Sequence record: NC_073060.1 | DNA from: Escherichia phage vB_EcoS_WF5505 | Direction: 5' to 3' (one strand) | Length of the DNA stretch: 47,082 nucleotides | In this document: one piece after another, positions 1 to 47,082 of the stretch | How positions within the stretch are numbered: position 1 is the first letter of the stretch | How the letters are laid out: every line of letters begins with the position of its first letter | Notes under the pieces: generated by a model | The model's input: only the letters and a program-made list of their open reading frames with translations | Told to the model about the DNA's origin: nothing | Databases searched by the model: none | Position numbers and translations under genes: made by a program

Positions 1-103
1 CAGCAGATAGCGATCAACTTTTTCATACGCATGATTAATATTGGTTGCATTCAGCCTGGCACCCTGCTAGATTGGTTGCACACCAACGAGAGGACCAAAC
101 AAA

Positions 104-274
104 ATGAAATTTCCAGTAACCATCAAAGACGGTAAATCAACTATCACCTTCACCAGCAACGACCAGGGCACCTATGAAAGCGGGGCGACTTGCATGTCTA
201 CCCTGGACGATGTGATGATTCGTGTTAATTCCGGTAAAGCCTCGATTGTTGACGACAACACTAAGAAGGACTGA
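104..274 (+). CDS. Hypothetical small early protein (56 aa, MKFPVTIKDG...)
   Basis: ATG preceded by GAGAGG Shine-Dalgarno; stop 3 nt before next ATG; under 60 aa so absent from ORF track. Confidence 0.5.
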   Translation: MKFPVTIKDGKSTITFTSNDQGTYESGATCMSTLDDVMIRVNSGKASIVDDNTKKD

Positions 275-277
275 ACA

Positions 278-583
278 ATGAGAGCATTAATCTGGAAATA
301 CTCACGGGCCATAGCGAAGCTGGACGAAGCGAAAAACACAAACGGCAACGTAGACTATGCGCGCCAGTTTGCGGCACGGGCACACCAACACATCATGAGT
401 GCGCTCGACGATATGGACGCCAGCATGGATGACCTGGGTCCGCTGCGTAAGGCTATCCATGAATACGCGCTGGCATTCTCCCGTGAGCGCCTGGCCTATC
501 GCTTCGGTATTGGCGATAAGGCAGTGACAAACGTTGCCCGGATTAAAGCCCAGCGTGAGCTATTCGCCCAGCTTGCGAAATAA
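278..583 (+). CDS. Hypothetical early protein (101 aa)
   Basis: Track ORF in a tightly packed same-strand gene run; no recognisable motif. Confidence 0.6.
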   Translation: MRALIWKYSRAIAKLDEAKNTNGNVDYARQFAARAHQHIMSALDDMDASMDDLGPLRKAIHEYALAFSRERLAYRFGIGDKAVTNVARIKAQRELFAQLAK

Positions 584-592
584 GAGGCCAAA

Positions 593-862
593 ATGACCCG
601 TAGACGCGCAAAACAGCTTTCGTGGCATATCCCCCTGCATTGCATACGAATATGGGCTAAGAATGCGAATGAGGGCGATTCAGTGTTCTGGTGCTATCGC
701 GACGACGTTAAGCCGTTGACGCAGACTCGCTACTTGCACCAGTTCGCAGCACAACACGATTTCAGGGTGCGGACTTCCTTGCAACCAATGGGGATCCGTA
801 TTACATTACGCCGGAAGCCCGCCGTTGAGCGGGTAGGCAAACACTGGAGACTGAGCAAATGA
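593..862 (+). CDS. Hypothetical early protein (89 aa)
   Basis: Track ORF; stop overlaps start of next gene (ATGA coupling). Confidence 0.55.
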   Translation: MTRRRAKQLSWHIPLHCIRIWAKNANEGDSVFWCYRDDVKPLTQTRYLHQFAAQHDFRVRTSLQPMGIRITLRRKPAVERVGKHWRLSK

Positions 863-1203
863 TTCGAGTAACCGCACGCCACGAACAATCGGGGGCCACT
901 TACGATGTAATCGACGTTCGCGGCGCGTTCGTCATCTTCGGACGGGGTGACGACCGGCTGGCGCTGCCGATCGGTATGCTGAGCACATACGACTATTTCA
1001 AGCATAACGTCCGGTGTGGCGATGTGCTGCGCGATAAGCGCACCGGTGAGCTATGGACGGTGGCGAGTATTTGGGTGAAAGATAAACGGCAGCACACGTT
1101 ATTGCTCGCCCGCCCGGATTGCAAACAGCAAACTATTAACACTATTGGCCTGGTGGACTACACCCGCGTAGGCCGTAACGCTACCTGGAGACTGAGAAAA
1201 TGA
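859..1203 (+). CDS. Hypothetical protein, paralogue A (114 aa)
   Basis: Track ORF; shares GDVLRD-R-G-LW-V and GL--Y-RVGR motifs with the next gene. Confidence 0.6.
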   Translation: MIRVTARHEQSGATYDVIDVRGAFVIFGRGDDRLALPIGMLSTYDYFKHNVRCGDVLRDKRTGELWTVASIWVKDKRQHTLLLARPDCKQQTINTIGLVDYTRVGRNATWRLRK

Positions 1204-1832
1204 AATTACTATTCCGCCGTAACTCAGATGGCTATATCCTGAAGCCGATCCAGACCCTATCGAACTGGGTACGCCTCCACCACGTTGCGAGTGATAAAGT
1301 CTGGTGGGCGACTAAGGCAAAGCTGCCGGAGTACTACGAAATCCTCACACACGATATCGAGCGCGGCGATGTGCTGCGGGATATTCGCGACGGGCAATTG
1401 TGGGTCGTGGAATACGTGGGTCGGCACGGCCTGCGTATGACGTCCCGCAAGGATGGCGTAGCGGGCAACATGGTCAAGGGCATGACTTACTTCGGGCTAC
1501 TCCACTACGAACGAGTGGGCCGCAAGTACAGCCTGCGTGCGCGCCAGCCTCATGAGCGAGCGAACGCCATAGCGGACGTCGTTAACCGCGTAGCGCGGGA
1601 GGTGGAGCAGAAGACACGCGTTGAGTTCTGCAAGTCCCAGCCAGCCTATGCAACCTACGACGCGAGCAAAGCGCAGGAATTGATCCGCAGTGCCACGCAT
1701 GAAATCATCAATCACGTTGATGCCATGACGAACGCCAAGCGCCAGGCCAGCGAATACGGCGTAGGATTCATCCGTGTCGAACAAGACGGCAACATGACCG
1801 CCATCGACCCGCGCACGGTAATACTGAAATGA
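1200..1832 (+). CDS. Hypothetical protein, paralogue B (210 aa)
   Basis: Track ORF; N-terminal half is paralogous to 859-1203, translationally coupled (ATGA). Confidence 0.6.
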   Translation: MKLLFRRNSDGYILKPIQTLSNWVRLHHVASDKVWWATKAKLPEYYEILTHDIERGDVLRDIRDGQLWVVEYVGRHGLRMTSRKDGVAGNMVKGMTYFGLLHYERVGRKYSLRARQPHERANAIADVVNRVAREVEQKTRVEFCKSQPAYATYDASKAQELIRSATHEIINHVDAMTNAKRQASEYGVGFIRVEQDGNMTAIDPRTVILK

Positions 1833-1953
1833 GCGCAACTATCCGTGATATGCTTATGCATAACCGCTTTGAGATAGGCGGGAGAGTGTTCTGCAATTAC
1901 TTCGTGGCGCGTGCTTGGGCGCGCCATATCGGAAAACCAGTAGGGGCAATACG

Positions 1954-2241
1954 ATGCTACACGATTTGATATTTTGGTTTGGTTTGGGGTGTGCGTCACT
2001 CTTTGCTATAGTGCTGGCGCTGTTGATTTGGATCTTTCTGGTATGGCCCGCGGTGGAAGCCGCCAGCATTACCCGGATGACGTTCCAGATATACAAGCGC
2101 CGAGGCATAACGGAACACCCGACCAGGTTGCGCATGTGGTGGCTATGGTATCTGGATATGCTTGGAGGCCGAAGGTTTGAGGCCGTCCGATCATCCGGGT
2201 GGGAATGGAAAGGCGTCGGCAAGTGGTCCATTTTCGATTAA
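1954..2241 (+). CDS. Small membrane protein (about 95 aa)
   Basis: ATG with AGGGG RBS, in frame with track ORF 1915-2241; hydrophobic helix FWFGLGCASLFAIVLALLIWIFLVW. Confidence 0.5.
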   Translation: MLHDLIFWFGLGCASLFAIVLALLIWIFLVWPAVEAASITRMTFQIYKRRGITEHPTRLRMWWLWYLDMLGGRRFEAVRSSGWEWKGVGKWSIFD

Positions 2242-2258
2242 ATATGCAAGCGTGATAT

Positions 2259-2293
2259 AGTCCCAGTGAACTAAAACTTACTGGGACTTTTTT
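2259..2293 (+). terminator. Rho-independent terminator
   Basis: Inverted repeat AGTCCCAG...CTGGGACT followed by TTTTTT, immediately before the holin start. Confidence 0.6.
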
Positions 2294-2584
2294 ATGGATA
2301 AGCTAAACGAGTGGTTATTCGCCCTCGCGTGTCTTGCAGGTGGCTTCGTTGGCGCTCGCATTCACGGTGAGGCAACGAAAGGGCCGCTAAACTTTGTGTT
2401 GTTTATCGTGGTCGGCTTCTTGTGTGCCGTTTTCGGTGCACCAGCTATTGCCGAGTGGGCTGGCTTATCTGGTGAGCGCACTGTTGCCGGATTGGGCTTC
2501 GTAACCGCAATCTTTTGGATGCCAATCGCCGCCCGGATCAGGGAGACGATTGCGTCTATCCGTCTTCCGGGGGGTGCAAAATGA
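2294..2584 (+). CDS. Putative holin (96 aa, three hydrophobic segments)
   Basis: Small membrane protein directly upstream of the lysozyme gene. Confidence 0.6.
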   Translation: MDKLNEWLFALACLAGGFVGARIHGEATKGPLNFVLFIVVGFLCAVFGAPAIAEWAGLSGERTVAGLGFVTAIFWMPIAARIRETIASIRLPGGAK

Positions 2585-2826
2585 GCCTCGCTATCCTGTT
2601 GTTTGTAATTATCGGGGCGTCGTCCCTGTTTAACGTATATGCGCCATCCGTCCAGGATGGCTTCTTCGGTCGGGTGTTATATCTACTAACGGCAATGACC
2701 TGTATTGTCGGTCTGTTGCAAACTGGAGATGTATCTGACGCCACCTGGACCGCGCTAATCTGGCTATTCGCATTGCGCACACTGCGTAATGCTGTTTTAA
2801 ATGGGGTAAAACATGCGATTCAGTGA
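2581..2826 (+). CDS. Second small membrane protein (holin/antiholin partner, 81 aa)
   Basis: ATG overlaps preceding stop (ATGA), in frame with track ORF 2515-2826; three hydrophobic segments. Confidence 0.5.
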   Translation: MSLAILLFVIIGASSLFNVYAPSVQDGFFGRVLYLLTAMTCIVGLLQTGDVSDATWTALIWLFALRTLRNAVLNGVKHAIQ

Positions 2827-5354: not shown

Positions 5355-5906
5355 ATGGCAGAAATCAAAGTTAAGGGCCGTCGTGCCAAACTGGACGGTC
5401 GAGTAGCAGTTACCCCGCGCCGTAAACCAGGCGAGCAAACAGAACACACCAATCTTGGACCCGAGATCGAATACGGCAAGCGTCGTAAAGGCGGCAAATG
5501 CGGACGCCCGACTGACTACCGCACCGTGTATTGTGACCAGCTTCGCCGCTATTTTGCTGATGCCGTAGCCTGGCAGATCAACTACTCCGACAAGGGTGCT
5601 GCGCAAGTCATCCCTCACAACAAGATGCCGACTCTCGGTCGCTTTGCCGCGGATATTGGCGTTGGCATCGCTTGCCTGTACCGCTGGGCGCGTGCACATG
5701 AGGAGTTCGCCGAAGCAATGGCGGACGCTATGGAGTTGCAGAAAACTTTCCTGATGGAGGCAGGCGGCGTGACCATCGCGGCGGGCTTCGCAACGTTCCT
5801 GCTTAAAGCAAACCACGGCATCCGTGACGATGCGCCGCTGGATGACGACGAAGATGATAACGGCGACGTCGTTGTCGAACCTACCGGCAAAGGCCAGGGC
5901 GAATAA
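5355..5906 (+). CDS. Putative terminase small subunit
   Basis: Immediately upstream of and coupled to the large terminase; acidic C-terminus; ATG with AAGGG RBS in frame with track ORF 5256-5906. Confidence 0.5.
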   Translation: MAEIKVKGRRAKLDGRVAVTPRRKPGEQTEHTNLGPEIEYGKRRKGGKCGRPTDYRTVYCDQLRRYFADAVAWQINYSDKGAAQVIPHNKMPTLGRFAADIGVGIACLYRWARAHEEFAEAMADAMELQKTFLMEAGGVTIAAGFATFLLKANHGIRDDAPLDDDEDDNGDVVVEPTGKGQGE

Positions 5907-7291
5907 TGCGTAACTATGCGGCAGAACACCGCGCACTTGAACGCGCGATCGTAAAGCGCAACCGACCGCCACGCCCTACGCGCGTTGCGCAGGCCGTCCG
6001 CCTGTATCAGCCTGATTGCCTTCCGCACCAGGTGGAACTGCTGCGCGACACGAAGACCAAAATCCTCGGCTTGTGTTCCGGCTTCGGTGGCGGCAAGTCA
6101 TGGGTCGCGGCGCGTAAGGTCATCCAGCTTCTCACACTTAACCCTGGCCATGATGGCATCGTTACAGAACCGACTATTCCACTCCTGGTTAAAATCATGT
6201 ACCCGGAGCTTGAGAAGGCTTTCGACGAGGCTGGATTCCGGTGGAAGTTCAACAAGCAAGATAAAATCTATAGCGTGCTGGTGAAAGGCAAATGGACCCG
6301 CGTTATTTGTGAGTCAATGGAGAACTACACCCGCCTGATCGGGGTTAACGCCGCGTGGATTGTTGCCGATGAGTTCGACACCACGAAGCAGGACGTCGCG
6401 ATGGCGGCGTATCACAAATTGCTCGGTCGTCTGCGTGCGGGCCTGGTGCGCCAGTTCGTCATCGTGTCCACGCCTGAAGGCTTCCGGGCGATGTATCAGA
6501 TTTTCGAAGTGGAGAAGGATAGCCAGAAGCGTTTAATCAGGGCGAAGACTACCGATAATCACCACTTACCGGCAGACTTTATCGACACACTGCGAAGCCA
6601 GTACCCAGCAAACCTGATTGACGCGTACCTTAACGGCCTGTTTGTCAACCTCACCTCGGGCGCTGTATACAAGATGTTTAACCGCGAAGAGAACGCCAGC
6701 ACCGAGGAAGTGCAACCGGATGATACGCTGATTATCGGTATGGACTTTAACGTTACGAAAATGGCGGCGGTTGTGTACGTCAGACGGCAGCGCACTACCG
6801 AGAGCAAGGAGTTCCGCGACGAGATCCACGCAGTGGACGAATTTGTGGACCTGTTTGATACCCCGGCTATGGTTGAGGCGATCGAGGAGCGCTACCCCGA
6901 TCATTGTGCTGCCGGTCGGGTCGTCGTTTACCCGGATAGCAGTGGCAAGTCTCGTAAGACTGTTAACGCGTCATCGTCCGATATCGCGCAACTGGAAGAC
7001 GCTGGCTTCGAGGTGGAGTATGACAGCGTCAACCCGCCTGTAAAAGACAGATTGATCGCGATGAATACGATGATGTGCAACTCGAAGGGCGTGCGCCAGT
7101 ATTTTGTCAACATGGATAAATGCCCTACACTAGCGAAATGTCTGGAACAGCAGGTTTATGACCTGAAGAAAGGCGAGCCGGATAAAACCGCCGGTGTGGA
7201 CCACATGAACGATGCCGCAGGCTACCCTGTTGCGCACCTGTTCCCAGTGATTCGTCCAATCGCCGTTGTTCCAACTGTAGACTTCTACTAA
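5906..7291 (+). CDS. Terminase large subunit
   Basis: Walker A-like CSGFGGGKS, Walker B WIVADEFD, C-terminal nuclease-like region; 461 aa; followed by portal. Confidence 0.85.
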   Translation: MRNYAAEHRALERAIVKRNRPPRPTRVAQAVRLYQPDCLPHQVELLRDTKTKILGLCSGFGGGKSWVAARKVIQLLTLNPGHDGIVTEPTIPLLVKIMYPELEKAFDEAGFRWKFNKQDKIYSVLVKGKWTRVICESMENYTRLIGVNAAWIVADEFDTTKQDVAMAAYHKLLGRLRAGLVRQFVIVSTPEGFRAMYQIFEVEKDSQKRLIRAKTTDNHHLPADFIDTLRSQYPANLIDAYLNGLFVNLTSGAVYKMFNREENASTEEVQPDDTLIIGMDFNVTKMAAVVYVRRQRTTESKEFRDEIHAVDEFVDLFDTPAMVEAIEERYPDHCAAGRVVVYPDSSGKSRKTVNASSSDIAQLEDAGFEVEYDSVNPPVKDRLIAMNTMMCNSKGVRQYFVNMDKCPTLAKCLEQQVYDLKKGEPDKTAGVDHMNDAAGYPVAHLFPVIRPIAVVPTVDFY

Positions 7292-10210: not shown

Positions 10211-10343
10211 ACCGCCTTGCACCTTTGAGAATGCCTCGGCAGATCCAGACGAGGATTTGCTTGTTGATGTTAAGAATATGGAGTGTGGTGCTAAGCTAAG
10301 GGCGCAAGTGCTGGAGTTGCAGAAAATAATTCGGGGGCCGTGA
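10113..10343 (+). CDS. o-spanin (Rz1-like outer-membrane lipoprotein)
   Basis: Signal peptide with lipobox LSAC, Pro- and Cys-containing mature part; overlaps i-spanin out of frame. Confidence 0.65.
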   Translation: MLRVLTVLIVVLMLSACGSSKAPSTPLTESVYRPPCTFENASADPDEDLLVDVKNMECGAKLRAQVLELQKIIRGP

Positions 10344-10356
10344 TGGCCCCTTTTTT
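10333..10356. terminator. Bidirectional rho-independent terminator (GGGGCC-N-GGCCCC family)
   Basis: GGGGGCCGTGATGGCCCC followed by TTTTTT; separates plus-strand spanins from minus-strand island. Confidence 0.65.
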
Positions 10357-10361
10357 GTTAA

Positions 10362-16601: not shown

Positions 16602-16625
16602 GGGGCCAGCACGGCCCCTTTTTTA
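16602..16625 (+). terminator. Rho-independent terminator (GGGGCC-N-GGCCCC family)
   Basis: GGGGCCAGCACGGCCCC followed by TTTTTT. Confidence 0.65.
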
Positions 16626-16640
16626 TTGGAGAATATTACA

Positions 16641-17319: not shown

Positions 17320-17645
17320 AAGCGGGACAAGCGGGACGTCCCGATCTGTCCCGTTTTGTCCCGCCCCTGTAAAACTGCATATCTACTCACTTTCATTGCA
17401 TAAACTCAAAGCGGGACAAGCGGGACGTCCCGCTTTGTCCCGCCCCTAAATATGCATACCTATTCAGATTTCGTGCATAAAACAAACGGGACAGAAAGCG
17501 GGACAAACAAGGGGCGGGACAAAGCGGGACAGCACCCCGTCCCCGTCAGTGCTGCCGCGGGTTTCAGCCGATCGGGACAGGCGGGACAACTACCAGTCTT
17601 TCAGACTAGACGGGGGTCAATGGCCCCCCTCGTCTTAGACTGAAT
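17320..17645. repeat. Non-coding iteron/palindrome element A
   Basis: Two tandem units with palindrome GCGGGACAAGCGGGACG/TCCCG.T.TGTCCCGC, then direct GCGGGACA repeats and a GC-rich hairpin; homologous to 44770-44945. Confidence 0.8.
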
Positions 17646-26100: not shown

Positions 26101-26565
26101 GGCGGTAGCGCCACCTACAGCCTTAAAGCTGGCGTGACGTATAACGGGACTTACTATGATGCCGGTATGCAGCTTTCCGTTGTGGCGGAAGGTGGCGCGG
26201 TTAAATCTCGCATCGCGTTCAAGGCGGACCAGTTCTACATCATGCACCCGTCGAATGGGTCGCTTTCGTCCGCGTTTATCGTCGACGGCGGTCAGGTGTA
26301 CATTGACACGGCGCGCATCAAGAATGCGTCCATCAACTTCGCACAGATCACGGACACGCTGCAATCCAATAACTGGAATCCGGGTAACAGCGGCTGGCGA
26401 ATCGCGAAGGATGGCGGGGCGGAGTTCAACAACGTAACGGTACGCGGCAACTTGTTCGCGACTACGGGTAATTTCGGATTCTCCGGCGGGTCCGTTACGA
26501 TCGACGCAACGGGCGTCAACGTGCCATTACCTGGAGGGGGAAGGGTTAAAGTCGGGACGTGGTAA
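23119..26565 (+). CDS. Central tail fibre / host specificity protein J-like
   Basis: 1148 aa; N-terminus KQHTPQETPDSLHSLAKIRILLALGEGEFEG and YSGDWDGTFKRAW resemble lambda gpJ (recalled). Confidence 0.9.
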   Translation: MTIVYDVTGHKGGGGKQHTPQETPDSLHSLAKIRILLALGEGEFEGIPDPNELRQRVYLDGTPIQNADLSDNFPGARVEFRPGTQHQDVIHGFSAVESEQTVGVKLENGAPWVRQISDTSLDAVRIRIGIPALYTNEDNGDLVGGRIDYKIVVYTDNADPREFTFAAVGKTMSLYERDHRIELPPNVNTGWRVEVHRTTADSTSAKAVNDIQVQSITEIIDARLRYPLTALLFVEFDAKAFQNIPRVSIKCKGRKVLVPNNYDPINHTYSGDWDGTFKRAWTDNPAWHWYDICITERFGLGRRVKPQMLNRYALYQISQRCDQMVSDGNGGQEIRFKNDMYIQSQTDAWTVLKDLAAIFAGMTWWGNQMLNIVSDQPVAAVSHTITNASVIDGRFDYASGSQKTRYSTFSVAYGNPKNHYDDAIATGQRVELVRRHKINRLDITAIGCTRESEAQRRGHWALISNQLDQQVSFKVGMEGLFFIPGSVVAIADTNISGGFETRGGRLLSDPGTRTVLNTDSEITFRPGDKFLVRTDSGNVETREIASVNGNQVTLKTALDSDPIPDQPFCVDGDDIQLQKFRITDLEYDDATSTFSVRGIEYNDSKYDAVDNGARLDPGIFTQVPDGVMKGPESVTITPSQISSQGQLITNVDIVFPPVKDAVVYEIQWRRTSLQNLEVQWGNDWVNIPRTASNGAHIPNVFSGNYQARVRAIGMGEISSPWVSSEITPVEGRLGGLNAPIITNAISGLHQILWKWNHNNAATDISYTELEVRKLGETEWKFLTNVPYPGSDYAQTSLEFGIYQQLRARVADKIGNLSDWSDPFDGQVSDKVDEYMQGLDDEFLTSEDGKHFQEAIDTIPQGIYEAMLTDAQQLFNARSEYQGIYAEIKVAYNVAVDANEAVAQLETLIGTRLDDAEASIHTLQTAQSTHEQAFAQYQQTVAAKFGEQEAAIQQVQTATADVAGALAEYKTQVAAQFGQQSAAIEQKMTSSFNHAGGSATYSLKAGVTYNGTYYDAGMQLSVVAEGGAVKSRIAFKADQFYIMHPSNGSLSSAFIVDGGQVYIDTARIKNASINFAQITDTLQSNNWNPGNSGWRIAKDGGAEFNNVTVRGNLFATTGNFGFSGGSVTIDATGVNVPLPGGGRVKVGTW

Positions 26566-26570
26566 ATGAG

Positions 26571-26595
26571 AAGGGGCCATCCGGCCCCTTTTTTA
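26571..26595. terminator. Bidirectional rho-independent terminator (GGGGCC-N-GGCCCC family)
   Basis: AGGGGCCATCCGGCCCCT flanked by A-run and T-run; between J (+) and minus-strand gene. Confidence 0.7.
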
Positions 26596-27863: not shown

Positions 27864-29390
27864 ATGGCAGCGGGTACTATCTTATTAACCAATAACAGCC
27901 GGTCGGTAACGGGGACCGGTACGACGTTTTCGGCGTTCAAAGCCGGTGATTTCCTTTCTGTCGTAGTGGGGCAAGTCCCCTACACTATCGCGATTGAATC
28001 TATCGAAAGCAACACCGGGCTTACTTTGGTGCTGCCGTTTGACGGCCCAACGGCATCCGGCCTCGCATGGGATGGCGTTGCGCGCGATACCATGTCGCTG
28101 GCAACGATGGGCGTAACAGTCCAGGCACAGAAAGCACTGCGTATGCTTATTGCGGACGAGAACAACTGGCGTGCAATCTTCGGCGACGCTGAAGAAATCA
28201 CAGTTACGTTACCGAACGGCACAGTGATGCAGGGTATGTCGTGGGGCTACCTGTCGCAGCTAATGAAGCAGATCGACCCGGTGGAAATGCTCAACCTGCA
28301 ACAACAAGCCGCCGCATCTGAGGTCGCAGCGAAAGGATACCGCGACGAGGCCGAAGGCTTCAAGAACGATACTAATACCATCAAGACGCAAACCAACCAG
28401 ATTAAGACTGATACGCAGGCGATCCACGACGCCACCAATACGATCAAGACGCAAACCGACCAGATTAAGACCGATACGCAGGCCATCAAGGACCAGACCA
28501 ACCAGATTAAGACTGACACTGGCGTTATTCGAGATCAGGCCAACACGGCGAAGACTGACGCACAAGCGGCCCGAGATGCAGCGCAGGGATACCGCGACGA
28601 AGCCGAAGGCTTCAAAAACTCAATCGACCCCACTAAGTTCATGCAGAAGTCGCAGAACCTGGCGGACGTTGCCGACAAGTACACCGCGCGCAACATTCTG
28701 GGGGTGGGCGATGACAGTAACGTTAAACACGCAACATTACGCCTGAACGGTGGCGAATCATTAACATTCAATGAAGTGGAGGCTAACGGCTTAATTCTAT
28801 CAAACGCCTCGATGGGAATCGACAATTGGGTAGGCTTCACCATGCATGAATGGTACGCCGACTGGACACGCGCAGGAATTGTGCGTGCGGGTGACACCCA
28901 CGTGTCAGACTACCGCATCCACGTGTGGAAGAATGGGGCTACTGAGGCGCTATTCCGCTTCCTGCCGGACGGGCGTCTGATTCAGGGTAACAGCGGCAAC
29001 CCATCGTCGGCGGAGTTTCAGAAAGCACCGCTATCAGACCGGGACGTGAAGAAAGAAATCCAATACACGGACGGCGCGGAAAGTTACAACCGAGTACGGC
29101 AATGGCTACCAGCAATGTTTAAGTATAAGGAGTCGGACGTACAGCGTTACGGCCTTATCGCGCAGGACCTGGCCATGATTGACCCGGAATATGTGCACTT
29201 GCTGCCAGGACACGGAATCTACGAGGACGTTGTTGTTGGCGTGGACGAGGAAGGGAACGAGATTATCGAGCAAAAGGAGATCGGATACACCGACGATGTG
29301 CTGTCGCTTGACAGTAACGTGCTGTTGATGGATCTATGCGCCGCCTTCGTTCACCTGTTGCAGAAAGTAGAAAAGCTGGAAGGTAAGTAA
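27864..29390 (+). CDS. Tail fibre protein with C-terminal intramolecular chaperone domain
   Basis: N-terminal MAAGTILLTNNSRSVTG; 21-aa tandem repeats; C-terminal LSDRDVKK and GLIAQDL resemble S74 autoproteolytic chaperone domains. Confidence 0.75.
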   Translation: MAAGTILLTNNSRSVTGTGTTFSAFKAGDFLSVVVGQVPYTIAIESIESNTGLTLVLPFDGPTASGLAWDGVARDTMSLATMGVTVQAQKALRMLIADENNWRAIFGDAEEITVTLPNGTVMQGMSWGYLSQLMKQIDPVEMLNLQQQAAASEVAAKGYRDEAEGFKNDTNTIKTQTNQIKTDTQAIHDATNTIKTQTDQIKTDTQAIKDQTNQIKTDTGVIRDQANTAKTDAQAARDAAQGYRDEAEGFKNSIDPTKFMQKSQNLADVADKYTARNILGVGDDSNVKHATLRLNGGESLTFNEVEANGLILSNASMGIDNWVGFTMHEWYADWTRAGIVRAGDTHVSDYRIHVWKNGATEALFRFLPDGRLIQGNSGNPSSAEFQKAPLSDRDVKKEIQYTDGAESYNRVRQWLPAMFKYKESDVQRYGLIAQDLAMIDPEYVHLLPGHGIYEDVVVGVDEEGNEIIEQKEIGYTDDVLSLDSNVLLMDLCAAFVHLLQKVEKLEGK

Positions 29391-29393
29391 TGA

Positions 29394-29418
29394 GAAGGGG
29401 CCATACGGCCCCTTTTTT
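29394..29418. terminator. Bidirectional rho-independent terminator (GGGGCC-N-GGCCCC family)
   Basis: AAGGGGCCATACGGCCCCTT followed by TTTTTT; between tail fibre (+) and minus-strand module. Confidence 0.7.
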
Positions 29419-29992
29419 AGTTTGAGTTTTCCCAGTCCATTTTGCGCCGTACTAACGGGCTTTCGTAATATTCCTTGCCCTCCACTTCCACCAGAGGCCA
29501 GTCGTTGACAATCACGTATGGTTCCGCAATATCCTCAATCACGCCGTGTGCGCTATGTTGCCCGAACGATACGCCCACCAGGATAACACCGGCAACCCGA
29601 CGGGTGAGATACTCGCGAGCGCAACGCGCCTCTACCAGTCCGCGACGGATGCCGCTGGTGGCTTTGACCTCGTAGGTCCAGACGGCATCAATCATGTGCT
29701 CACGGAAGTCGGGGCCGGACTTAACCTTGCGTTTACCGACCATGATAATATCGCCGCGGTCGATAGTATTGGCGCTAAACAGGCCGGTACGCATAAGCAA
29801 GCCTTGCGGGATACAACTACGCCCGCCTGCCTGCCCTTCAAGGTACATGCCAGCAAACATCTCGCCCAGCACACCGACAAGTCGGCTTTGCTTGCACGCG
29901 TCAGACTTTAATCGCCACTGGTCAAACTCGACGCTCGCCAACATTGCCGCTATGTGGAATTGTTTACCGGTTATTTCGTATTCGCCGTACAT
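29417..29992 (-). CDS. Hypothetical protein (191 aa), possible PD-(D/E)XK-like nuclease
   Basis: Track ORF; candidate motif GDIIMV...(about 28 aa)...YEVK; assignment weak. Confidence 0.4.
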   Translation of the reverse strand: MYGEYEITGKQFHIAAMLASVEFDQWRLKSDACKQSRLVGVLGEMFAGMYLEGQAGGRSCIPQGLLMRTGLFSANTIDRGDIIMVGKRKVKSGPDFREHMIDAVWTYEVKATSGIRRGLVEARCAREYLTRRVAGVILVGVSFGQHSAHGVIEDIAEPYVIVNDWPLVEVEGKEYYESPLVRRKMDWENSN

Positions 29993-31382: not shown

Positions 31383-31848
31383 GTAGTTCTCTCTCGCTCA
31401 TTATTTCAATTTGTGCGCTGCCGATGGGCGGCGCTTCGTCAAATATTATCAATTGCTGGCACTTGTTATTGCTCGGCCCGACTTCACCGGTGACAGCGTG
31501 TATAAATCTCACCCGCCAGTCCAGAAGAATTATCAGGTTTGCAGTCTTCCGGGCCAGCCTCGCCCACTTCGTCGACGTGTCCTGATTCAGTAGCATGACC
31601 GTCCGGCGTCCGTGCGCTGCGCATTCGACCCACGGCAGCGGATCGGAATACGGCGGATTGCACCACTTCCACCCTTTCAACTCTGCCCAGTCCACATCAA
31701 GCGCGCTATGTTCTGCCGTGAAGTAACGCGGTAGCAGGTGGTTGGCATCGCTTGCCGCCATATCGTAACGGAATCGGTATTTCCGACGAAGCGGTTTGAA
31801 TAAAGCTGGCGGCGTGCGCCAGCTATCTTTTTGCTCACTCTTCTGCAT
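31363..31848 (-). CDS. DNA N6-adenine methyltransferase (phage Dam family)
   Basis: N-terminal DSWRTPPALF and catalytic NPPY motif (CNPPYSD); 161 aa. Confidence 0.75.
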   Translation of the reverse strand: MQKSEQKDSWRTPPALFKPLRRKYRFRYDMAASDANHLLPRYFTAEHSALDVDWAELKGWKWCNPPYSDPLPWVECAAHGRRTVMLLNQDTSTKWARLARKTANLIILLDWRVRFIHAVTGEVGPSNNKCQQLIIFDEAPPIGSAQIEIMSERELHEYLNR

Positions 31849-42412: not shown

Positions 42413-44677
42413 ATGAGCTTAATTAAATTCGCAGTAACAAGACCCGCTAAAAAAGGCGAAAAAGCCAGGGCGGAAAACTTCGAGATGACCACTGATGAAT
42501 TTTTCGAATTTATCAATGATGCAAAAGAAATCTCGTCGGTGCATATCAACAAGACAGAAGATAAAGCCGAGTATGCGCGCCGCAAGCGTAAGGCCGATGG
42601 TATCGTGGCATATACCAATGACGGATTACGCCGCAAGACCAGTGCGGTCGACCGCTCGATCCTGTTCTTCGATATCGACCGTACTGACACCCGCACTTTA
42701 CGCCGCTGCCGTAAGGCGTTCACCGACGCTGGTCTGGAGCATGTATTTCACACCACGACCGGCGACCGTCACCCGTTGAAAGGCGGAACACGTTGCGCCC
42801 GTTTCCTGGTGCTCACTGATAAGCCTGTACCGGCGGAAGACCTGGGCCGCGTCCAGTATGCATTGTTAGACCAACTGGGCCTGTCAGATGTGGACTTCGA
42901 CGATTGTACAAAAGACACAAACCGCCTTATGTACCTGCCTCACCAGCAGTCTGTCATAAAGTGCCATTATGGCAAGCGCGCCCGTGTCCGTCGTCTGCTT
43001 CGCCTGGCTGACAAGCTGGGAGTTGAGAAAGAGGAAGTGCGCCGCGAACTGACCCAGGGCGACGATGGCGTGGCGGACGGGATTCTGGACTGGTGCTTCC
43101 AGGCTGGCTTTGAACCACTGTCATCCGGTCGCGGTTATGAAGTGCCGTGCCCGAATGAGCACCTGCATAGCGGTGAAGGGTCGACGGCTATCATGGTTAA
43201 GGATGGCGAGATCCGTTTCAAGTGTATGCACACCGGCAACGAATGCTGTTCCGAACTGAATAAACACCAGCACCTGGCGTTACGTCTGATCGGTATCCCG
43301 GACCACTTGAACGTCGAACCACACAACATGTCACGCAAGCAAATCGCCGCCATCCTTCCTGGACTGGACGACGAGGAAGTGGAATCGTGCTACGAGCATA
43401 TTGTTGATGCGGTCGGAGACGGCGACGAGTACGGCGAATGCACCGACGCTGACCTGGACAACGAGCCGGTCGCACTGTTCAGTAAGCACGACCCGATTAT
43501 CGAAGGCCTGGTCAACTTCAAATCGACCTGGTATATGGCGGGTGAGTCGAACATTGGTAAGTCGTTCTACGTGCTGGGCCAGATGGGCGCTGTTGCCGCG
43601 GGCATTCCGTTCGGCGGCGCGAAGGTCGTCCAGTCGCATTGCTTCTATTTCGATGCGGAAGGCGGCGAAGCCTCCAACCAGCGTAAAGAAGCATTGCAGA
43701 TCAAATATGAGCACGACCTCGACAAGCTGCACATTATCGACCTGCAATCACGCGGCTGGGATATTACCAGCAAGTCAGGCTTGCGCGAGGTTATCAGCTT
43801 TATCAACCGCACCGCTAACGGGGAGCCGGTTGGCCTGGTGGCCTTCGACTCACTCAACCAGACTGTAGCGCTGCGGTCCGCTGATGCCAAACCGTTCGAC
43901 GAGAACAACGCAAGCGATATGGGCGAAGTGGTCAAGGCGCTGAAGTCCATTGCGGAAAATACAGGTGGCAGTGCGGGCGTCATCCATCACCCGGCTAAGG
44001 GTGCAAACGGCAGCAGGTCACCACGCGGGTCCGGCGCGCTTCATGGTGCTGTAGATTCTGCGTTCTTCCTGGAACAGCCGGACGATAATCAGCCAGGCCA
44101 GCTTAACCTGTATCACGAAAAGTCACGTAACGGCATCAAGCAAGCGCCGCGTGGCTTCGTCCTGCTCAAGTGCAAAGTTAAGGTGGATCTCCGTAAGTCT
44201 GATGCGTTCGAAGCCCACCAGTCCACCAGCACCGGGCCAGACTTCGGCGATGTGGTTGCCGGTTGGGACGTCAAGCCAATTGCATCCACGCCACGCGACG
44301 AGACTCTCTACCTCGTACCGGTCGCCCTGGCACCGTTCGCTATCGAACAGGCTAAGGCAGCAGGCAAGGCAGCAGTTAAGGAAGAGAACACCGCCGGACC
44401 GCGCAACGAGAAAGAGAAGGTGCTTTATGCGGCACTGGAAAAACTGATGGAAGATAACCCGGACCATACTGGATTCAGTAAATCGGCAATTGTCCGCCAG
44501 GCTGGACTTGCGAAAGGTGGCACATCGACGAAGGCAATCGACGATATGGTAGAGCGCGGAGTGCTCGGATTTTATACAGACCCACACACCGGGGCCATCT
44601 ATGGGTCGTCGAATTTAGTCATCAAATCGGATATACCCATCACGCTTTCAGCGACCGATGACGACCTGAAAGATTAA
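42413..44677 (+). CDS. DNA primase / replicative helicase
   Basis: 754 aa; Cys/His cluster CPNEHLHSGEG...KCMHTGNECC; C-terminal Walker A GESNIGKS; coupled to HTH gene. Confidence 0.7.
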   Translation: MSLIKFAVTRPAKKGEKARAENFEMTTDEFFEFINDAKEISSVHINKTEDKAEYARRKRKADGIVAYTNDGLRRKTSAVDRSILFFDIDRTDTRTLRRCRKAFTDAGLEHVFHTTTGDRHPLKGGTRCARFLVLTDKPVPAEDLGRVQYALLDQLGLSDVDFDDCTKDTNRLMYLPHQQSVIKCHYGKRARVRRLLRLADKLGVEKEEVRRELTQGDDGVADGILDWCFQAGFEPLSSGRGYEVPCPNEHLHSGEGSTAIMVKDGEIRFKCMHTGNECCSELNKHQHLALRLIGIPDHLNVEPHNMSRKQIAAILPGLDDEEVESCYEHIVDAVGDGDEYGECTDADLDNEPVALFSKHDPIIEGLVNFKSTWYMAGESNIGKSFYVLGQMGAVAAGIPFGGAKVVQSHCFYFDAEGGEASNQRKEALQIKYEHDLDKLHIIDLQSRGWDITSKSGLREVISFINRTANGEPVGLVAFDSLNQTVALRSADAKPFDENNASDMGEVVKALKSIAENTGGSAGVIHHPAKGANGSRSPRGSGALHGAVDSAFFLEQPDDNQPGQLNLYHEKSRNGIKQAPRGFVLLKCKVKVDLRKSDAFEAHQSTSTGPDFGDVVAGWDVKPIASTPRDETLYLVPVALAPFAIEQAKAAGKAAVKEENTAGPRNEKEKVLYAALEKLMEDNPDHTGFSKSAIVRQAGLAKGGTSTKAIDDMVERGVLGFYTDPHTGAIYGSSNLVIKSDIPITLSATDDDLKD

Positions 44678-44769
44678 ATTTTGCGCGCATTGGTTGCCAT
44701 TTTGAGTGTTTTTAGCTGGCCGCATTGGTTGCCGTGTAGTGTAAATATAGTGAATAGTTATGCAGTTTT

Positions 44770-44945
44770 ATTGCATAAAACAAACGGGACAAAAAGCGGG
44801 ACAGACAGGGGGCGGGACAAAGCGGGACAGCACCCCTGTCCCGCCCCGGATTACGCGGCTTGCAGGGGTGCGGGACAGGCGGGACAAACCCCAGTCTTTC
44901 AGACTAGACGGGGGTCAGTTGGCCCCCCTCGTCTGAGACTGCATA
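44770..44945. repeat. Non-coding iteron element B
   Basis: TGCATAAAACAAACGGGACA..., four or more GCGGGACA repeats, GC hairpin; about 85-90% identical to 17476-17645; after primase-helicase and before right terminal repeat. Confidence 0.8.
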
Positions 44946-45159
44946 AAATCCTGGATTGCATAATGCACGGCAGCATGATGAGAATTGCGGTCGTTGATGA
45001 ACTAGGCAACCAATGCGAGTTGGATAATGGAGAGTGAAAAATGCAGTTTGCAGTTACAGCAGATAGCGATCAACTTTTTCATACGCATGATTAATATTGG
45101 TTGCATTCAGCCTGGCACCCTGCTAGATTGGTTGCACACCAACGAGAGGACCAAACAAA

Positions 45160-45330
45160 ATGAAATTTCCAGTAACCATCAAAGACGGTAAATCAACTAT
45201 CACCTTCACCAGCAACGACCAGGGCACCTATGAAAGCGGGGCGACTTGCATGTCTACCCTGGACGATGTGATGATTCGTGTTAATTCCGGTAAAGCCTCG
45301 ATTGTTGACGACAACACTAAGAAGGACTGA
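45160..45330 (+). CDS. Duplicate of 104-274 (small early protein)
   Basis: Inside right repeat, identical sequence. Confidence 0.5.
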   Translation: MKFPVTIKDGKSTITFTSNDQGTYESGATCMSTLDDVMIRVNSGKASIVDDNTKKD

Positions 45331-45333
45331 ACA

Positions 45334-45639
45334 ATGAGAGCATTAATCTGGAAATACTCACGGGCCATAGCGAAGCTGGACGAAGCGAAAAACACAAACG
45401 GCAACGTAGACTATGCGCGCCAGTTTGCGGCACGGGCACACCAACACATCATGAGTGCGCTCGACGATATGGACGCCAGCATGGATGACCTGGGTCCGCT
45501 GCGTAAGGCTATCCATGAATACGCGCTGGCATTCTCCCGTGAGCGCCTGGCCTATCGCTTCGGTATTGGCGATAAGGCAGTGACAAACGTTGCCCGGATT
45601 AAAGCCCAGCGTGAGCTATTCGCCCAGCTTGCGAAATAA
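45334..45639 (+). CDS. Duplicate of 278-583
   Basis: Identical translation in ORF track. Confidence 0.6.
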   Translation: MRALIWKYSRAIAKLDEAKNTNGNVDYARQFAARAHQHIMSALDDMDASMDDLGPLRKAIHEYALAFSRERLAYRFGIGDKAVTNVARIKAQRELFAQLAK

Positions 45640-45648
45640 GAGGCCAAA

Positions 45649-45918
45649 ATGACCCGTAGACGCGCAAAACAGCTTTCGTGGCATATCCCCCTGCATTGCA
45701 TACGAATATGGGCTAAGAATGCGAATGAGGGCGATTCAGTGTTCTGGTGCTATCGCGACGACGTTAAGCCGTTGACGCAGACTCGCTACTTGCACCAGTT
45801 CGCAGCACAACACGATTTCAGGGTGCGGACTTCCTTGCAACCAATGGGGATCCGTATTACATTACGCCGGAAGCCCGCCGTTGAGCGGGTAGGCAAACAC
45901 TGGAGACTGAGCAAATGA
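45649..45918 (+). CDS. Duplicate of 593-862
   Basis: Identical translation in ORF track. Confidence 0.55.
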   Translation: MTRRRAKQLSWHIPLHCIRIWAKNANEGDSVFWCYRDDVKPLTQTRYLHQFAAQHDFRVRTSLQPMGIRITLRRKPAVERVGKHWRLSK

Positions 45919-46259
45919 TTCGAGTAACCGCACGCCACGAACAATCGGGGGCCACTTACGATGTAATCGACGTTCGCGGCGCGTTCGTCATCTTCGGACG
46001 GGGTGACGACCGGCTGGCGCTGCCGATCGGTATGCTGAGCACATACGACTATTTCAAGCATAACGTCCGGTGTGGCGATGTGCTGCGCGATAAGCGCACC
46101 GGTGAGCTATGGACGGTGGCGAGTATTTGGGTGAAAGATAAACGGCAGCACACGTTATTGCTCGCCCGCCCGGATTGCAAACAGCAAACTATTAACACTA
46201 TTGGCCTGGTGGACTACACCCGCGTAGGCCGTAACGCTACCTGGAGACTGAGAAAATGA
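45915..46259 (+). CDS. Duplicate of 859-1203 (paralogue A)
   Basis: Identical translation in ORF track. Confidence 0.6.
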   Translation: MIRVTARHEQSGATYDVIDVRGAFVIFGRGDDRLALPIGMLSTYDYFKHNVRCGDVLRDKRTGELWTVASIWVKDKRQHTLLLARPDCKQQTINTIGLVDYTRVGRNATWRLRK

Positions 46260-46888
46260 AATTACTATTCCGCCGTAACTCAGATGGCTATATCCTGAAG
46301 CCGATCCAGACCCTATCGAACTGGGTACGCCTCCACCACGTTGCGAGTGATAAAGTCTGGTGGGCGACTAAGGCAAAGCTGCCGGAGTACTACGAAATCC
46401 TCACACACGATATCGAGCGCGGCGATGTGCTGCGGGATATTCGCGACGGGCAATTGTGGGTCGTGGAATACGTGGGTCGGCACGGCCTGCGTATGACGTC
46501 CCGCAAGGATGGCGTAGCGGGCAACATGGTCAAGGGCATGACTTACTTCGGGCTACTCCACTACGAACGAGTGGGCCGCAAGTACAGCCTGCGTGCGCGC
46601 CAGCCTCATGAGCGAGCGAACGCCATAGCGGACGTCGTTAACCGCGTAGCGCGGGAGGTGGAGCAGAAGACACGCGTTGAGTTCTGCAAGTCCCAGCCAG
46701 CCTATGCAACCTACGACGCGAGCAAAGCGCAGGAATTGATCCGCAGTGCCACGCATGAAATCATCAATCACGTTGATGCCATGACGAACGCCAAGCGCCA
46801 GGCCAGCGAATACGGCGTAGGATTCATCCGTGTCGAACAAGACGGCAACATGACCGCCATCGACCCGCGCACGGTAATACTGAAATGA
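46256..46888 (+). CDS. Duplicate of 1200-1832 (paralogue B)
   Basis: Identical translation in ORF track. Confidence 0.6.
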   Translation: MKLLFRRNSDGYILKPIQTLSNWVRLHHVASDKVWWATKAKLPEYYEILTHDIERGDVLRDIRDGQLWVVEYVGRHGLRMTSRKDGVAGNMVKGMTYFGLLHYERVGRKYSLRARQPHERANAIADVVNRVAREVEQKTRVEFCKSQPAYATYDASKAQELIRSATHEIINHVDAMTNAKRQASEYGVGFIRVEQDGNMTAIDPRTVILK

Positions 46889-47009
46889 GCGCAACTATCC
46901 GTGATATGCTTATGCATAACCGCTTTGAGATAGGCGGGAGAGTGTTCTGCAATTACTTCGTGGCGCGTGCTTGGGCGCGCCATATCGGAAAACCAGTAGG
47001 GGCAATACG

Positions 47010-47082
47010 ATGCTACACGATTTGATATTTTGGTTTGGTTTGGGGTGTGCGTCACTCTTTGCTATAGTGCTGGCGCTGTTGA
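47010..47082 (+). CDS. 5' fragment of duplicate of 1954-2241, truncated by window end
   Basis: Same sequence as 1954-2026; the window (and the repeat) ends inside the gene. Confidence 0.4.
   Translation, partial: MLHDLIFWFGLGCASLFAIVLALL

Follow-up and report, generated by a model that had tools for sequence, protein, structure and literature searches.

The window, by which we mean the whole 47,082-nt stretch analysed here (Escherichia phage vB_EcoS_WF5505, NC_073060.1), carries the same 2 kb at both ends, and this identity is probably ordinary terminal redundancy, the first-headful representation of the genome of a pac-type headful Dhillonvirus. Such a feature is ordinary and belongs to a known kind. 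When the window was compared with itself, positions 1–2026 and 45057–47082 proved exactly identical, with 2026 nt as the longest prefix that matches a suffix; such a match cannot be chance. Removing the second copy leaves a unit of 45,056 bp, of which the repeat makes up 4.50% (2,026/45,056). A preliminary description of this DNA had claimed the end-to-end identity, the size of the unit and the presence of five genes inside the repeat; direct comparison confirmed these claims, and five complete ORFs lie between 104 and 1832. The repeat and its contents are as follows.

1–2026, + strand: left repeat copy, beginning at the putative conserved packaging-initiation (pac) end.
45057–47082, + strand: right repeat copy, which we interpret as what one headful takes in beyond the 45,056-bp unit (4.5% terminal redundancy).
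104–274, 278–583, 593–862, 859–1203 and 1200–1832, + strand: five small function-unknown genes, entirely within the repeat, in PHROG families without known function.
1954–2241, + strand: conserved gene for a 95-aa membrane protein, with codon 25 split by the repeat boundary at 2026.

The five small genes occur again at 45160–46888, and the same five ORFs are annotated as WFI_00001–00005 in the closest relative, vB_EcoS_WFI. Of the sixth gene, the first 73 nt fall within the repeat, and its right-hand copy is truncated (47010–47082). For bookkeeping, 45,056 bp is the non-redundant genome size; the genes at 45160–46888 are duplicates, to be counted only once.

Judged by its sequence, the window is a Dhillonvirus, a member of the HK578/SO-1-like virulent E. 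coli siphoviruses. WFI aligns collinearly over bases 1 to 45056, with 95.1% identity across 96% of the unit, and SP1, UDS3lw and Zar3M are 88.7–94.6% identical and likewise collinear; about 150 Dhillonvirus records matched the window. Bases 1–103 found 157 matching places among 156 related GenBank records, 80–100% identical. The sole record that holds them twice (1 of 156) is the misassembled PQ843332, which is 88.6 kb long and shows 77-nt offset duplications and a 49.7-kb period. A 2,026-bp repeat of the present kind was found in none of the approximately 156 related records: BF9, UDS3lw, Opt-212 and WFI are unit-length, and only the window writes the repeat out. The relatives' sequence runs uninterrupted through both junctions, with the equivalent of 45056/45057 lying mid-record. 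In IMG/VR, a 58-nt junction sequence had no exact match, while a 26-nt cut-site sequence was found in 11 genome-length contigs. The site is internal in all 11, as is expected of circular assemblies, and these contigs are therefore uninformative on ends. The literature on eiAU, the BASEL collection, Danish wastewater phages and Plaque-2-seq is silent on Dhillonvirus ends.

By comparison with these relatives, base 1 of the window is a real, conserved DNA end.

45056–45057 (that is, before base 1), + strand: conserved terminase cut position, ...AAATGCAGTTTGCAGTTA / CAGCAGATAGCGATCAAC..., from the BF9 terminus and record starts.

The published PhageTerm table for BF9 gives Ends Redundant, Left Distributed, Right 28168, Permuted Yes and Headful (pac). 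Its minus-strand read-start peak (T=0.53, p=8e-65) is the only significant terminus, the best plus-strand peak having T=0.04 and p=1; a T of 0.53 means that about half of the reads covering the site begin at the cut. Position 28168 on the BF9 minus strand is the C of CAGCAGATAG, which is homologous, exactly, to base 1 of the window. The peak points in the + direction of the window, and the BF9 record is not rotated to the cut site. The records of WFI, UDS3lw, Zar3M and SP1, which come from Germany, the USA, Kazakhstan and China, have the same first base as the window. The WFI authors stated that contigs were linearised at the point where most reads end abruptly; SP1 and Zar3M may owe their starts to copying from WFI, not to measurement. 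Two further records, 101114B2 and 22664B1, were considered as independent support for the start base and discarded because both seem to have been rotated conventionally; 22664B1 begins at an ORF lying 30 nt upstream. A sequence-specific initiation end, as in the pac class, was found in the relatives' data, and the suggestion that the boundary beside the iteron module is a defined terminus held up, base 1 being both the BF9 terminus and the first base of several GenBank records. A 7-bp inverted repeat (TGAAAAA/TTTTTCA) can be read around the cut, at -22 and +19. The Dhillonvirus packaging-initiation cut can be placed to the base, at ...GCAGTTA / CAGCAGATAG, a position useful for consistent genome orientation across the genus and for engineering. 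Cut and packaging type also bear on transduction risk, pac-type headful phages being able to package host DNA, and the genus is often proposed for phage therapy.

The cut lies in a non-coding region that also holds repeated motifs.

44678–45159 (44678–45056 plus 1–103), + strand: non-coding control region, ~480 bp long and conserved, that separates the primase-helicase gene from the first small gene.
44751–44927, + strand: GGGACA-rich iteron element B, 177 nt, 82% identical to 17453–17629 and recognised by motif clustering.

The control region includes the cut site, TTGGTTGC motifs and iteron module B, and its per-base conservation in 14 Dhillonvirus genomes is 0.8–1.0, versus 0.3–0.6 in the flanking genes. 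The distance from iteron B to the repeat boundary, given earlier as about 110 bp, was roughly right: the module ends at ~44927–44940, ~115–130 bp before 45056/45057. A second copy of the module lies at ~17320–17640. A role of iteron module B as the pac signal is improbable, given the 82% copy at 17.4 kb, for which ends have not been reported, and the end of the similarity ~115 bp before the cut. Because the second copy sits where no genome end is seen, iteron element B is probably not the pac determinant. A scan of 44500–45400 for sigma-70 promoters returned no promoter-like site, and a terminator scan of the same interval returned one terminator-like site, within the primase-helicase gene. 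Rfam and tRNA scans gave no matches, and GC skew merely tracks the direction of transcription.

The opposite boundary has a different character. Position 2026 falls mid-codon inside the conserved CDS at 1954–2241, with no sequence feature there. Aligning the cut-site context to the 2026 region gave a score of 8, below the null mean of 9.5, and no shared motif. The corresponding end in BF9 is 'Left: Distributed' (a relative's reads), and the window at 2026 is without the cut-site motif.

These observations are consistent with the following scheme, in which the terminase of the window would act at the cut described above.

5355–5906, + strand: terminase small subunit (TerS; phrog_3064 terminase, 1e-71).
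5906–7291, + strand: terminase large subunit (TerL), Terminase_6N/6C type, from a domain match and homologues.

The two subunits would recognise pac, presumably located in the 480-bp non-coding stretch past the primase-helicase gene, and would cut the concatemer precisely at the GCAGTTA junction (45056/45057 of the window, equivalent to 0/1). Translocation would proceed rightward, taking in the small genes, the lysis genes, the terminase genes and then the structural genes, and would end once ~47.1 kb, or ~104.5% of the 45,056-bp unit, fills the head. The terminating cut would not be sequence-specific, and the 2,026-bp redundancy that results would permit circularisation by recombination after infection. 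Successive headfuls of one series would each start ~2 kb further along, giving a partly permuted population. We infer that this phage packages like BF9 and that 2,026 bp reflects the true mean headful overrun, not an arbitrary stop of the assembly; provided that the record represents actual molecules, head capacity is ~47.1 kb. Terminal redundancy of a few percent is the usual headful range, and the 4.5% found here lies within it. Since the base-1 end would be packaged first, it would, under the last-in-first-out order of DNA exit seen in lambda and SPP1, leave the capsid last, which speaks against the earlier suggestion that the left end is injected first.

Calls made for other members of the genus largely agree with the headful scheme. 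PhageTerm assigned UDS3lw to headful packaging with a pac site, Opt-212 was called headful, and four bovine Dhillonvirus isolates are listed as circularly permuted; circular assemblies of relatives with arbitrary starts and the 'Permuted: Yes' entry for BF9 are further, indirect hints of permutation. The published PhageTerm calls are not unanimous, one isolate being given as 'Fixed' and EE09 as COS 5'. The EE09 entry, 'COS 5' ATCTTAAGGG', names a motif absent from both strands of the window and is a probable miscall. The current version of the record of bov25_1D, listed with 'Fixed' termini, has been re-oriented to terS and is uninformative.

The terminases were compared with those of other phages. 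TerL is 65% identical to that of Edwardsiella phage eiAU and 40% identical (E=4e-103) to that of the Jerseyvirus SETP3, and TerS is 35% identical to SETP3 TerS; among groups whose packaging type has been described, Jerseyvirus is the closest by TerL. The Jerseyvirus K47 was reported as P1-like headful by PhageTerm, and its restriction profiles were interpreted likewise. TerS matches Sf6_terminase and P22 GP3_package weakly, under the curated cut-offs, and PDB sequence searches with TerL and TerS gave marginal matches only. TerL showed no BLAST-level similarity to the classical headful enzymes, that of T1 (E=1.8) or anything in the 45–94.8 kb segment of P1, a point against the headful scheme, and no significant similarity to T5 TerL (E=1.7), so a tree of classical typed TerL proteins is not useful. 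The 108-kb phage PhiR41_1 initially looked T5-like, but its TerL is only 25% identical to that of T5. A further point against the scheme is that in P22, SPP1, Sf6 and P1 pac lies in or beside terS, whereas the cut in the window precedes terS by 5.3 kb, and a pac in or beside that gene was not found. A location in or beside terS is typical, not obligatory: in T1, terS is 8.4 kb from the pac end.

The identity of the ends could instead be an overlap left by assembly or curation, in which a read graph that was circular or concatemeric yielded contig ends that were left untrimmed, as a long-read assembler may do, and that have nothing to do with virion ends. The start at base 1 would then be a mere rotation to match the RefSeq relative WFI. 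We regard this as unlikely. Records that fit this reading do exist in the genus: PQ843332 is over-long, CHD2B1 apparently retains ~126 bp of overlapping ends, and 22664B1 and bov25_1D (re-oriented to terS) were rotated by convention. The lack of any feature at 2026 also fits an overlap of arbitrary length. However, rotating a contig to a chosen base requires prior circularisation, which removes the overlap, and a start at a read-supported pac end combined with an overrun past the unit is the expectation for a first-headful molecule. The excess of BF9 reads starting at the cut, about half of those covering it, also argues against an origin in assembly, as does an overrun whose 4.5% is a biologically sensible headful value.

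A genuine long direct terminal repeat (DTR) with two fixed ends, as in T5, SPO1 or Wifcevirus, is very improbable. Every virion chromosome would begin at base 1 and extend to base 2026 of the following unit, with the repeat regenerated at packaging. The left end is indeed base-precise and conserved, the record seems to have curated ends and contains an exact repeat of definite length, the same small genes stand at both ends as in the T5 terminal repeat, and one Dhillonvirus is listed with 'Fixed' termini. The curated start and the exact-length repeat could, for their part, stem from a 'DTR (long)' call by the depositor, and the label 'DTR' is here no evidence for fixed-end packaging. Against two fixed ends, BF9 lacks a significant opposite-strand terminus and falls in the permuted, redundant class, the published calls for UDS3lw and Opt-212 are headful, and the depositing laboratory of WFI described terminal repeats in its paper for other phages and none for its Dhillonviruses. 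Conservation of the repeat was not seen, as it is absent from the ~156 related records; position 2026 is mid-codon in a conserved gene and has no motif in common with the left cut; and a DTR-type terminase was not found, TerL being unrelated to that of T5 and its nearest typed relatives being headful. It is likewise very improbable that Dhillonviruses, or at least this isolate, have a fixed 2-kb DTR with five small genes that short-read assemblies collapse and PhageTerm miscalls. Were this true, the published 'headful (pac)' calls and ~150 unit-length GenBank records would be wrong about the ends, and the DNA would always enter with the repeated genes at its leading end, comparable to the first-step-transfer region of T5. 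Of the three options that the preliminary description had left side by side, headful terminal redundancy in a linear record is the one our results favour; its fixed-end option finds no support, given the missing second fixed end in BF9, an in-gene position 2026 unlike the cut site, and the absence of the repeat from every related record.

Read as headful terminal redundancy, the window resembles several described systems to different degrees. BF9, UDS3lw, Opt-212 and WFI share its genus, its cut-site sequence and its packaging direction. The Jerseyvirus members SETP3 and K47, Salmonella phages and pac headful siphoviruses, have a similar genome size and the closest typed terminases, but form a separate genus with little nucleotide similarity to the window. 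Coliphage T1 (Drexlerviridae) carries out pac-initiated processive headful packaging with ~2.8 kb (~6%) of terminal redundancy. Like the window, it is a virulent siphovirus of 45–49 kb in which the left end is followed by a run of function-unknown small genes, the terminase genes lie several kb further in (terS is 8.4 kb from the end in T1 and 5.3 kb in the window), and the gene order is terS, terL, portal, head, tail. Redundancy is a few kb in both, the T1 record annotating a repeat_region at 1..2800, and the T1 left end, with this annotated 2.8-kb repeat_region, is the pac end. The two differ in the extent of redundancy (~6% versus 4.5%), in terminases that are not detectably homologous, and in that the redundant segment is written once in the T1 record and twice in the window. 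Like the window, T5 has whole small genes inside a multi-kb repeat that is exact and present at both ends; T5, however, has two fixed ends and a 10-kb repeat, whereas BF9, the closest relative of the window with read data, has one fixed end.

The window comes from a virulent E. coli siphovirus of the HK578/SO-1-like kind, a Dhillonvirus, and about 150 GenBank records of this genus match it. Its closest relative, vB_EcoS_WFI, is 95.1% identical to it across 96% of the unit and collinear with it (window 1-45056 with WFI 1-45536). The exact 2,026-bp end repeat reported in the preliminary description was borne out: the window opens and closes with the same 2,026 bases, and its longest prefix equal to a suffix is exactly of this length. 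The repeat amounts to 4.5% of a non-redundant unit of 45,056 bp. It encloses five whole small ORFs, and a sixth gene (1954-2241) has its first 73 nt in it. The adjacent genes at 859-1203 and 1200-1832 are paralogues, both matching phrog_10243, and a 46-nt segment at 1018-1063 of this pair recurs at 1365-1410 with 72% identity. Among relatives this is the most variable part of the repeat, with an HNH endonuclease or shorter genes in its place.

Features of the window
From base 1, + strand: five small genes of unknown function
After the five small genes, + strand: membrane protein, holins and lysozyme, and exonuclease, in that order
5355-5906, + strand: TerS, after the exonuclease
5906-7291, + strand: TerL, of the Terminase_6N/6C type
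3′ of TerL, + strand: portal, then head and tail genes
17453-17629 (module 17320-17640): module A, partner of element B, in the tail gene cluster, with the tail-chaperone and tape-measure genes on either side
After the head and tail genes, - strand: replication genes
+ strand: Gam-like gene
42413-44677, + strand: primase-helicase
44751-44927: element B, downstream of the primase-helicase gene
41/72, 3532/3555, 11720/11734, 30682/30694, 32356/32373, 39130/39146, 44690/44725: examples of paired TTGGTTGC octamers
26529-26595, 29353-29419, 10334-10359, 16602-16627: copies of the terminator cassette

The left edge of the repeat is a genuine, conserved terminus and a real DNA end. The first base of the WFI record is window base 1 and its last is the equivalent of 45056, and the records of UDS3lw (USA), Zar3M (Kazakhstan) and SP1 (China) likewise open with CAGCAGATAG. 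WFI may have served as the copied source for some of these record starts, and in two further records of one series (101114B2 and 22664B1) the start was clearly set by convention. Decisive here is BF9, a phage with a record that has not been rotated to the cut site. PhageTerm classified BF9 as Headful (pac), with redundant ends, a distributed left end, a right end at 28168, permutation and reverse orientation; 28168, a minus-strand position, is the one significant terminus (T=0.53, p=8e-65), and plus-strand positions reach at most T=0.04 (p=1) (PMC10059673 supplement). About half of the reads covering this site start there. Read on the minus strand (MW822006), 28168 is exactly the C of CAGCAGATAGCGATCAAC, following ...GCGGTTTGCAGTTA. 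This position maps onto window base 1, which is thus a read-start-supported terminase cut from which packaging proceeds in the + direction of the window. As a by-product, the Dhillonvirus pac cut is placed at base level. A 7-bp inverted repeat, TGAAAAA ... TTTTTCA, flanks the cut at distances of 15 and 18 bp (window 45035-45082, also 1-26), and a direct repeat, TGCAGTT TGCAGTT, lies just upstream; judged by sequence, these are candidate elements that may act in terminase recognition or DNA bending.

PhageTerm calls for BF9, UDS3lw and Opt-212 are headful or pac, and published entries give circular permutation for four bovine isolates and "Fixed" termini for one isolate. EE09 was called COS 5′ with the 10-nt cohesive ends ATCTTAAGGG (PMC10673088), a result that conflicts with the headful calls elsewhere in the genus. 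This 10-mer was not found on either strand of the window, and the EE09 record holds the conserved pac cut sequence mid-record (31461-31563).

A pac-type headful mechanism is already published for Dhillonvirus, and the whole feature is probably the ordinary terminal redundancy of such a phage. The pac element recognised by terminase would lie in the non-coding stretch of 480 bp that separates the primase-helicase gene from the first small gene; conservation there is 0.8-1.0 per base versus 0.3-0.6 in the flanking genes (14 genomes). Terminase would then cut between GCAGTTA and CAGCAG and package rightward until headful measurement ends the process at about 47.1 kb, so that the 2,026-bp overrun would be terminal redundancy and the window the sequence of the first headful. 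DNA in first-headful particles has the genes of the left end at its redundant right end too. The suggestion that the left end is injected first was not supported, since rightward packaging puts the base-1 end into the capsid first. DNA follows a last-in-first-out rule in lambda and SPP1, and under that rule the base-1 end would be ejected last.

The right boundary seems arbitrary. It splits the gene (1954-2241; phrog_2531) of a conserved 95-aa protein at codon 25, where a hydrophobic stretch is encoded. When the 300 bp around position 2026 were aligned to the cut-site context, the score of 8 did not exceed that of random genome segments (null mean 9.5, sd 1.6). Both 2026/2027 and 45056/45057 are uninterrupted in related genomes. 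Bases 1-103 occur once per record across 156 related records, with PQ843332 as the one exception, and the terminal repeat is absent from every other deposited Dhillonvirus in this set. PQ843332.1 (Escherichia phage P-GXEC-L2P5), an 88,607-bp Dhillonvirus "complete genome" of about twice normal size, is a misassembly rather than a truly large genome: its genes are broken up, about 1,800 of its 25-mers recur at an offset of 77 nt, and it has a period of 49.7 kb. The paper from the WFI laboratory gives terminal repeats for T5-like, SP6-like, V5-like and WFC/WFH phages and none for its Dhillonviruses. The Dhillonvirus-like draft contig of the Intesti cocktail measures 46,882 bp, compared with 44,332 bp for the reference EK99P-1 (PMC13193621, Table 1); being near the 47,082 bp of the window, it may, as a lead only, likewise have terminal redundancy written into it.

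That the repeat is purely an overlap of assembly or curation seems unlikely; such an overlap accounts poorly for a linear contig that starts at the read-supported pac end and also exceeds the unit by as much as would be sensible for a headful. A true fixed-end direct terminal repeat is less probable still: a DTR call could produce a record of this form, but the single terminus of BF9, the headful calls in the genus, the lack of the repeat in all related records and its featureless right boundary all contradict this reading. The "DTR" of this window is no evidence for fixed-end packaging.

The GGGACA-rich iteron modules, element B and module A, share a 177-nt stretch with 82% identity. In their common core of about 190 nt, TGCATAAAACAAACGGGACA... 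is followed by a number of (G)CGGGACA repeats, some in each orientation, and then by a hairpin, AGACGGGGG...CCCCCCTCGTCT. The window has 21 copies of CGGGACA versus 7 expected, 18 of them within the two module clusters; no Rfam match was found for the modules. The iteron module is probably not the pac determinant, because the similarity stops some 115 bp short of the cut and module A is a place where reports give no genome ends. It may be an origin, an array for regulator binding or something else. Another repeated motif, the octamer TTGGTTGC, has 23 copies in the window (1.9 expected), mostly in intergenic pairs 12-35 bp apart that point the same way as the genes downstream of them. It resembles a phage-specific operator or promoter motif, at sites that a standard sigma-70 scan did not pick up. 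Several operon ends have in common a terminator cassette, GGGGCC(n)GGCCCCTTTTTT. Downstream of the two tail-fibre genes, two copies reach 67 nt with 73% identity, which suggests module exchange at these points.

Outside the genus, TerL is nearest to that of Edwardsiella phage eiAU (65%) and then to those of Jerseyviruses (40%, E=4e-103), of which K47 is P1-like headful by PhageTerm, with restriction profiles interpreted alike. It has no significant similarity to T1 TerL, T5 TerL or the P1 pac region, so the terminase argument is confined to the Jerseyvirus link. Unlike in P22, SPP1, Sf6 and P1, the cut here lies 5.3 kb upstream of terS. Coliphage T1 offers a parallel: its terS is 8.4 kb downstream of the left end, which is the pac end, and its record has a 2.8-kb repeat_region annotated at the left end, followed by small genes.
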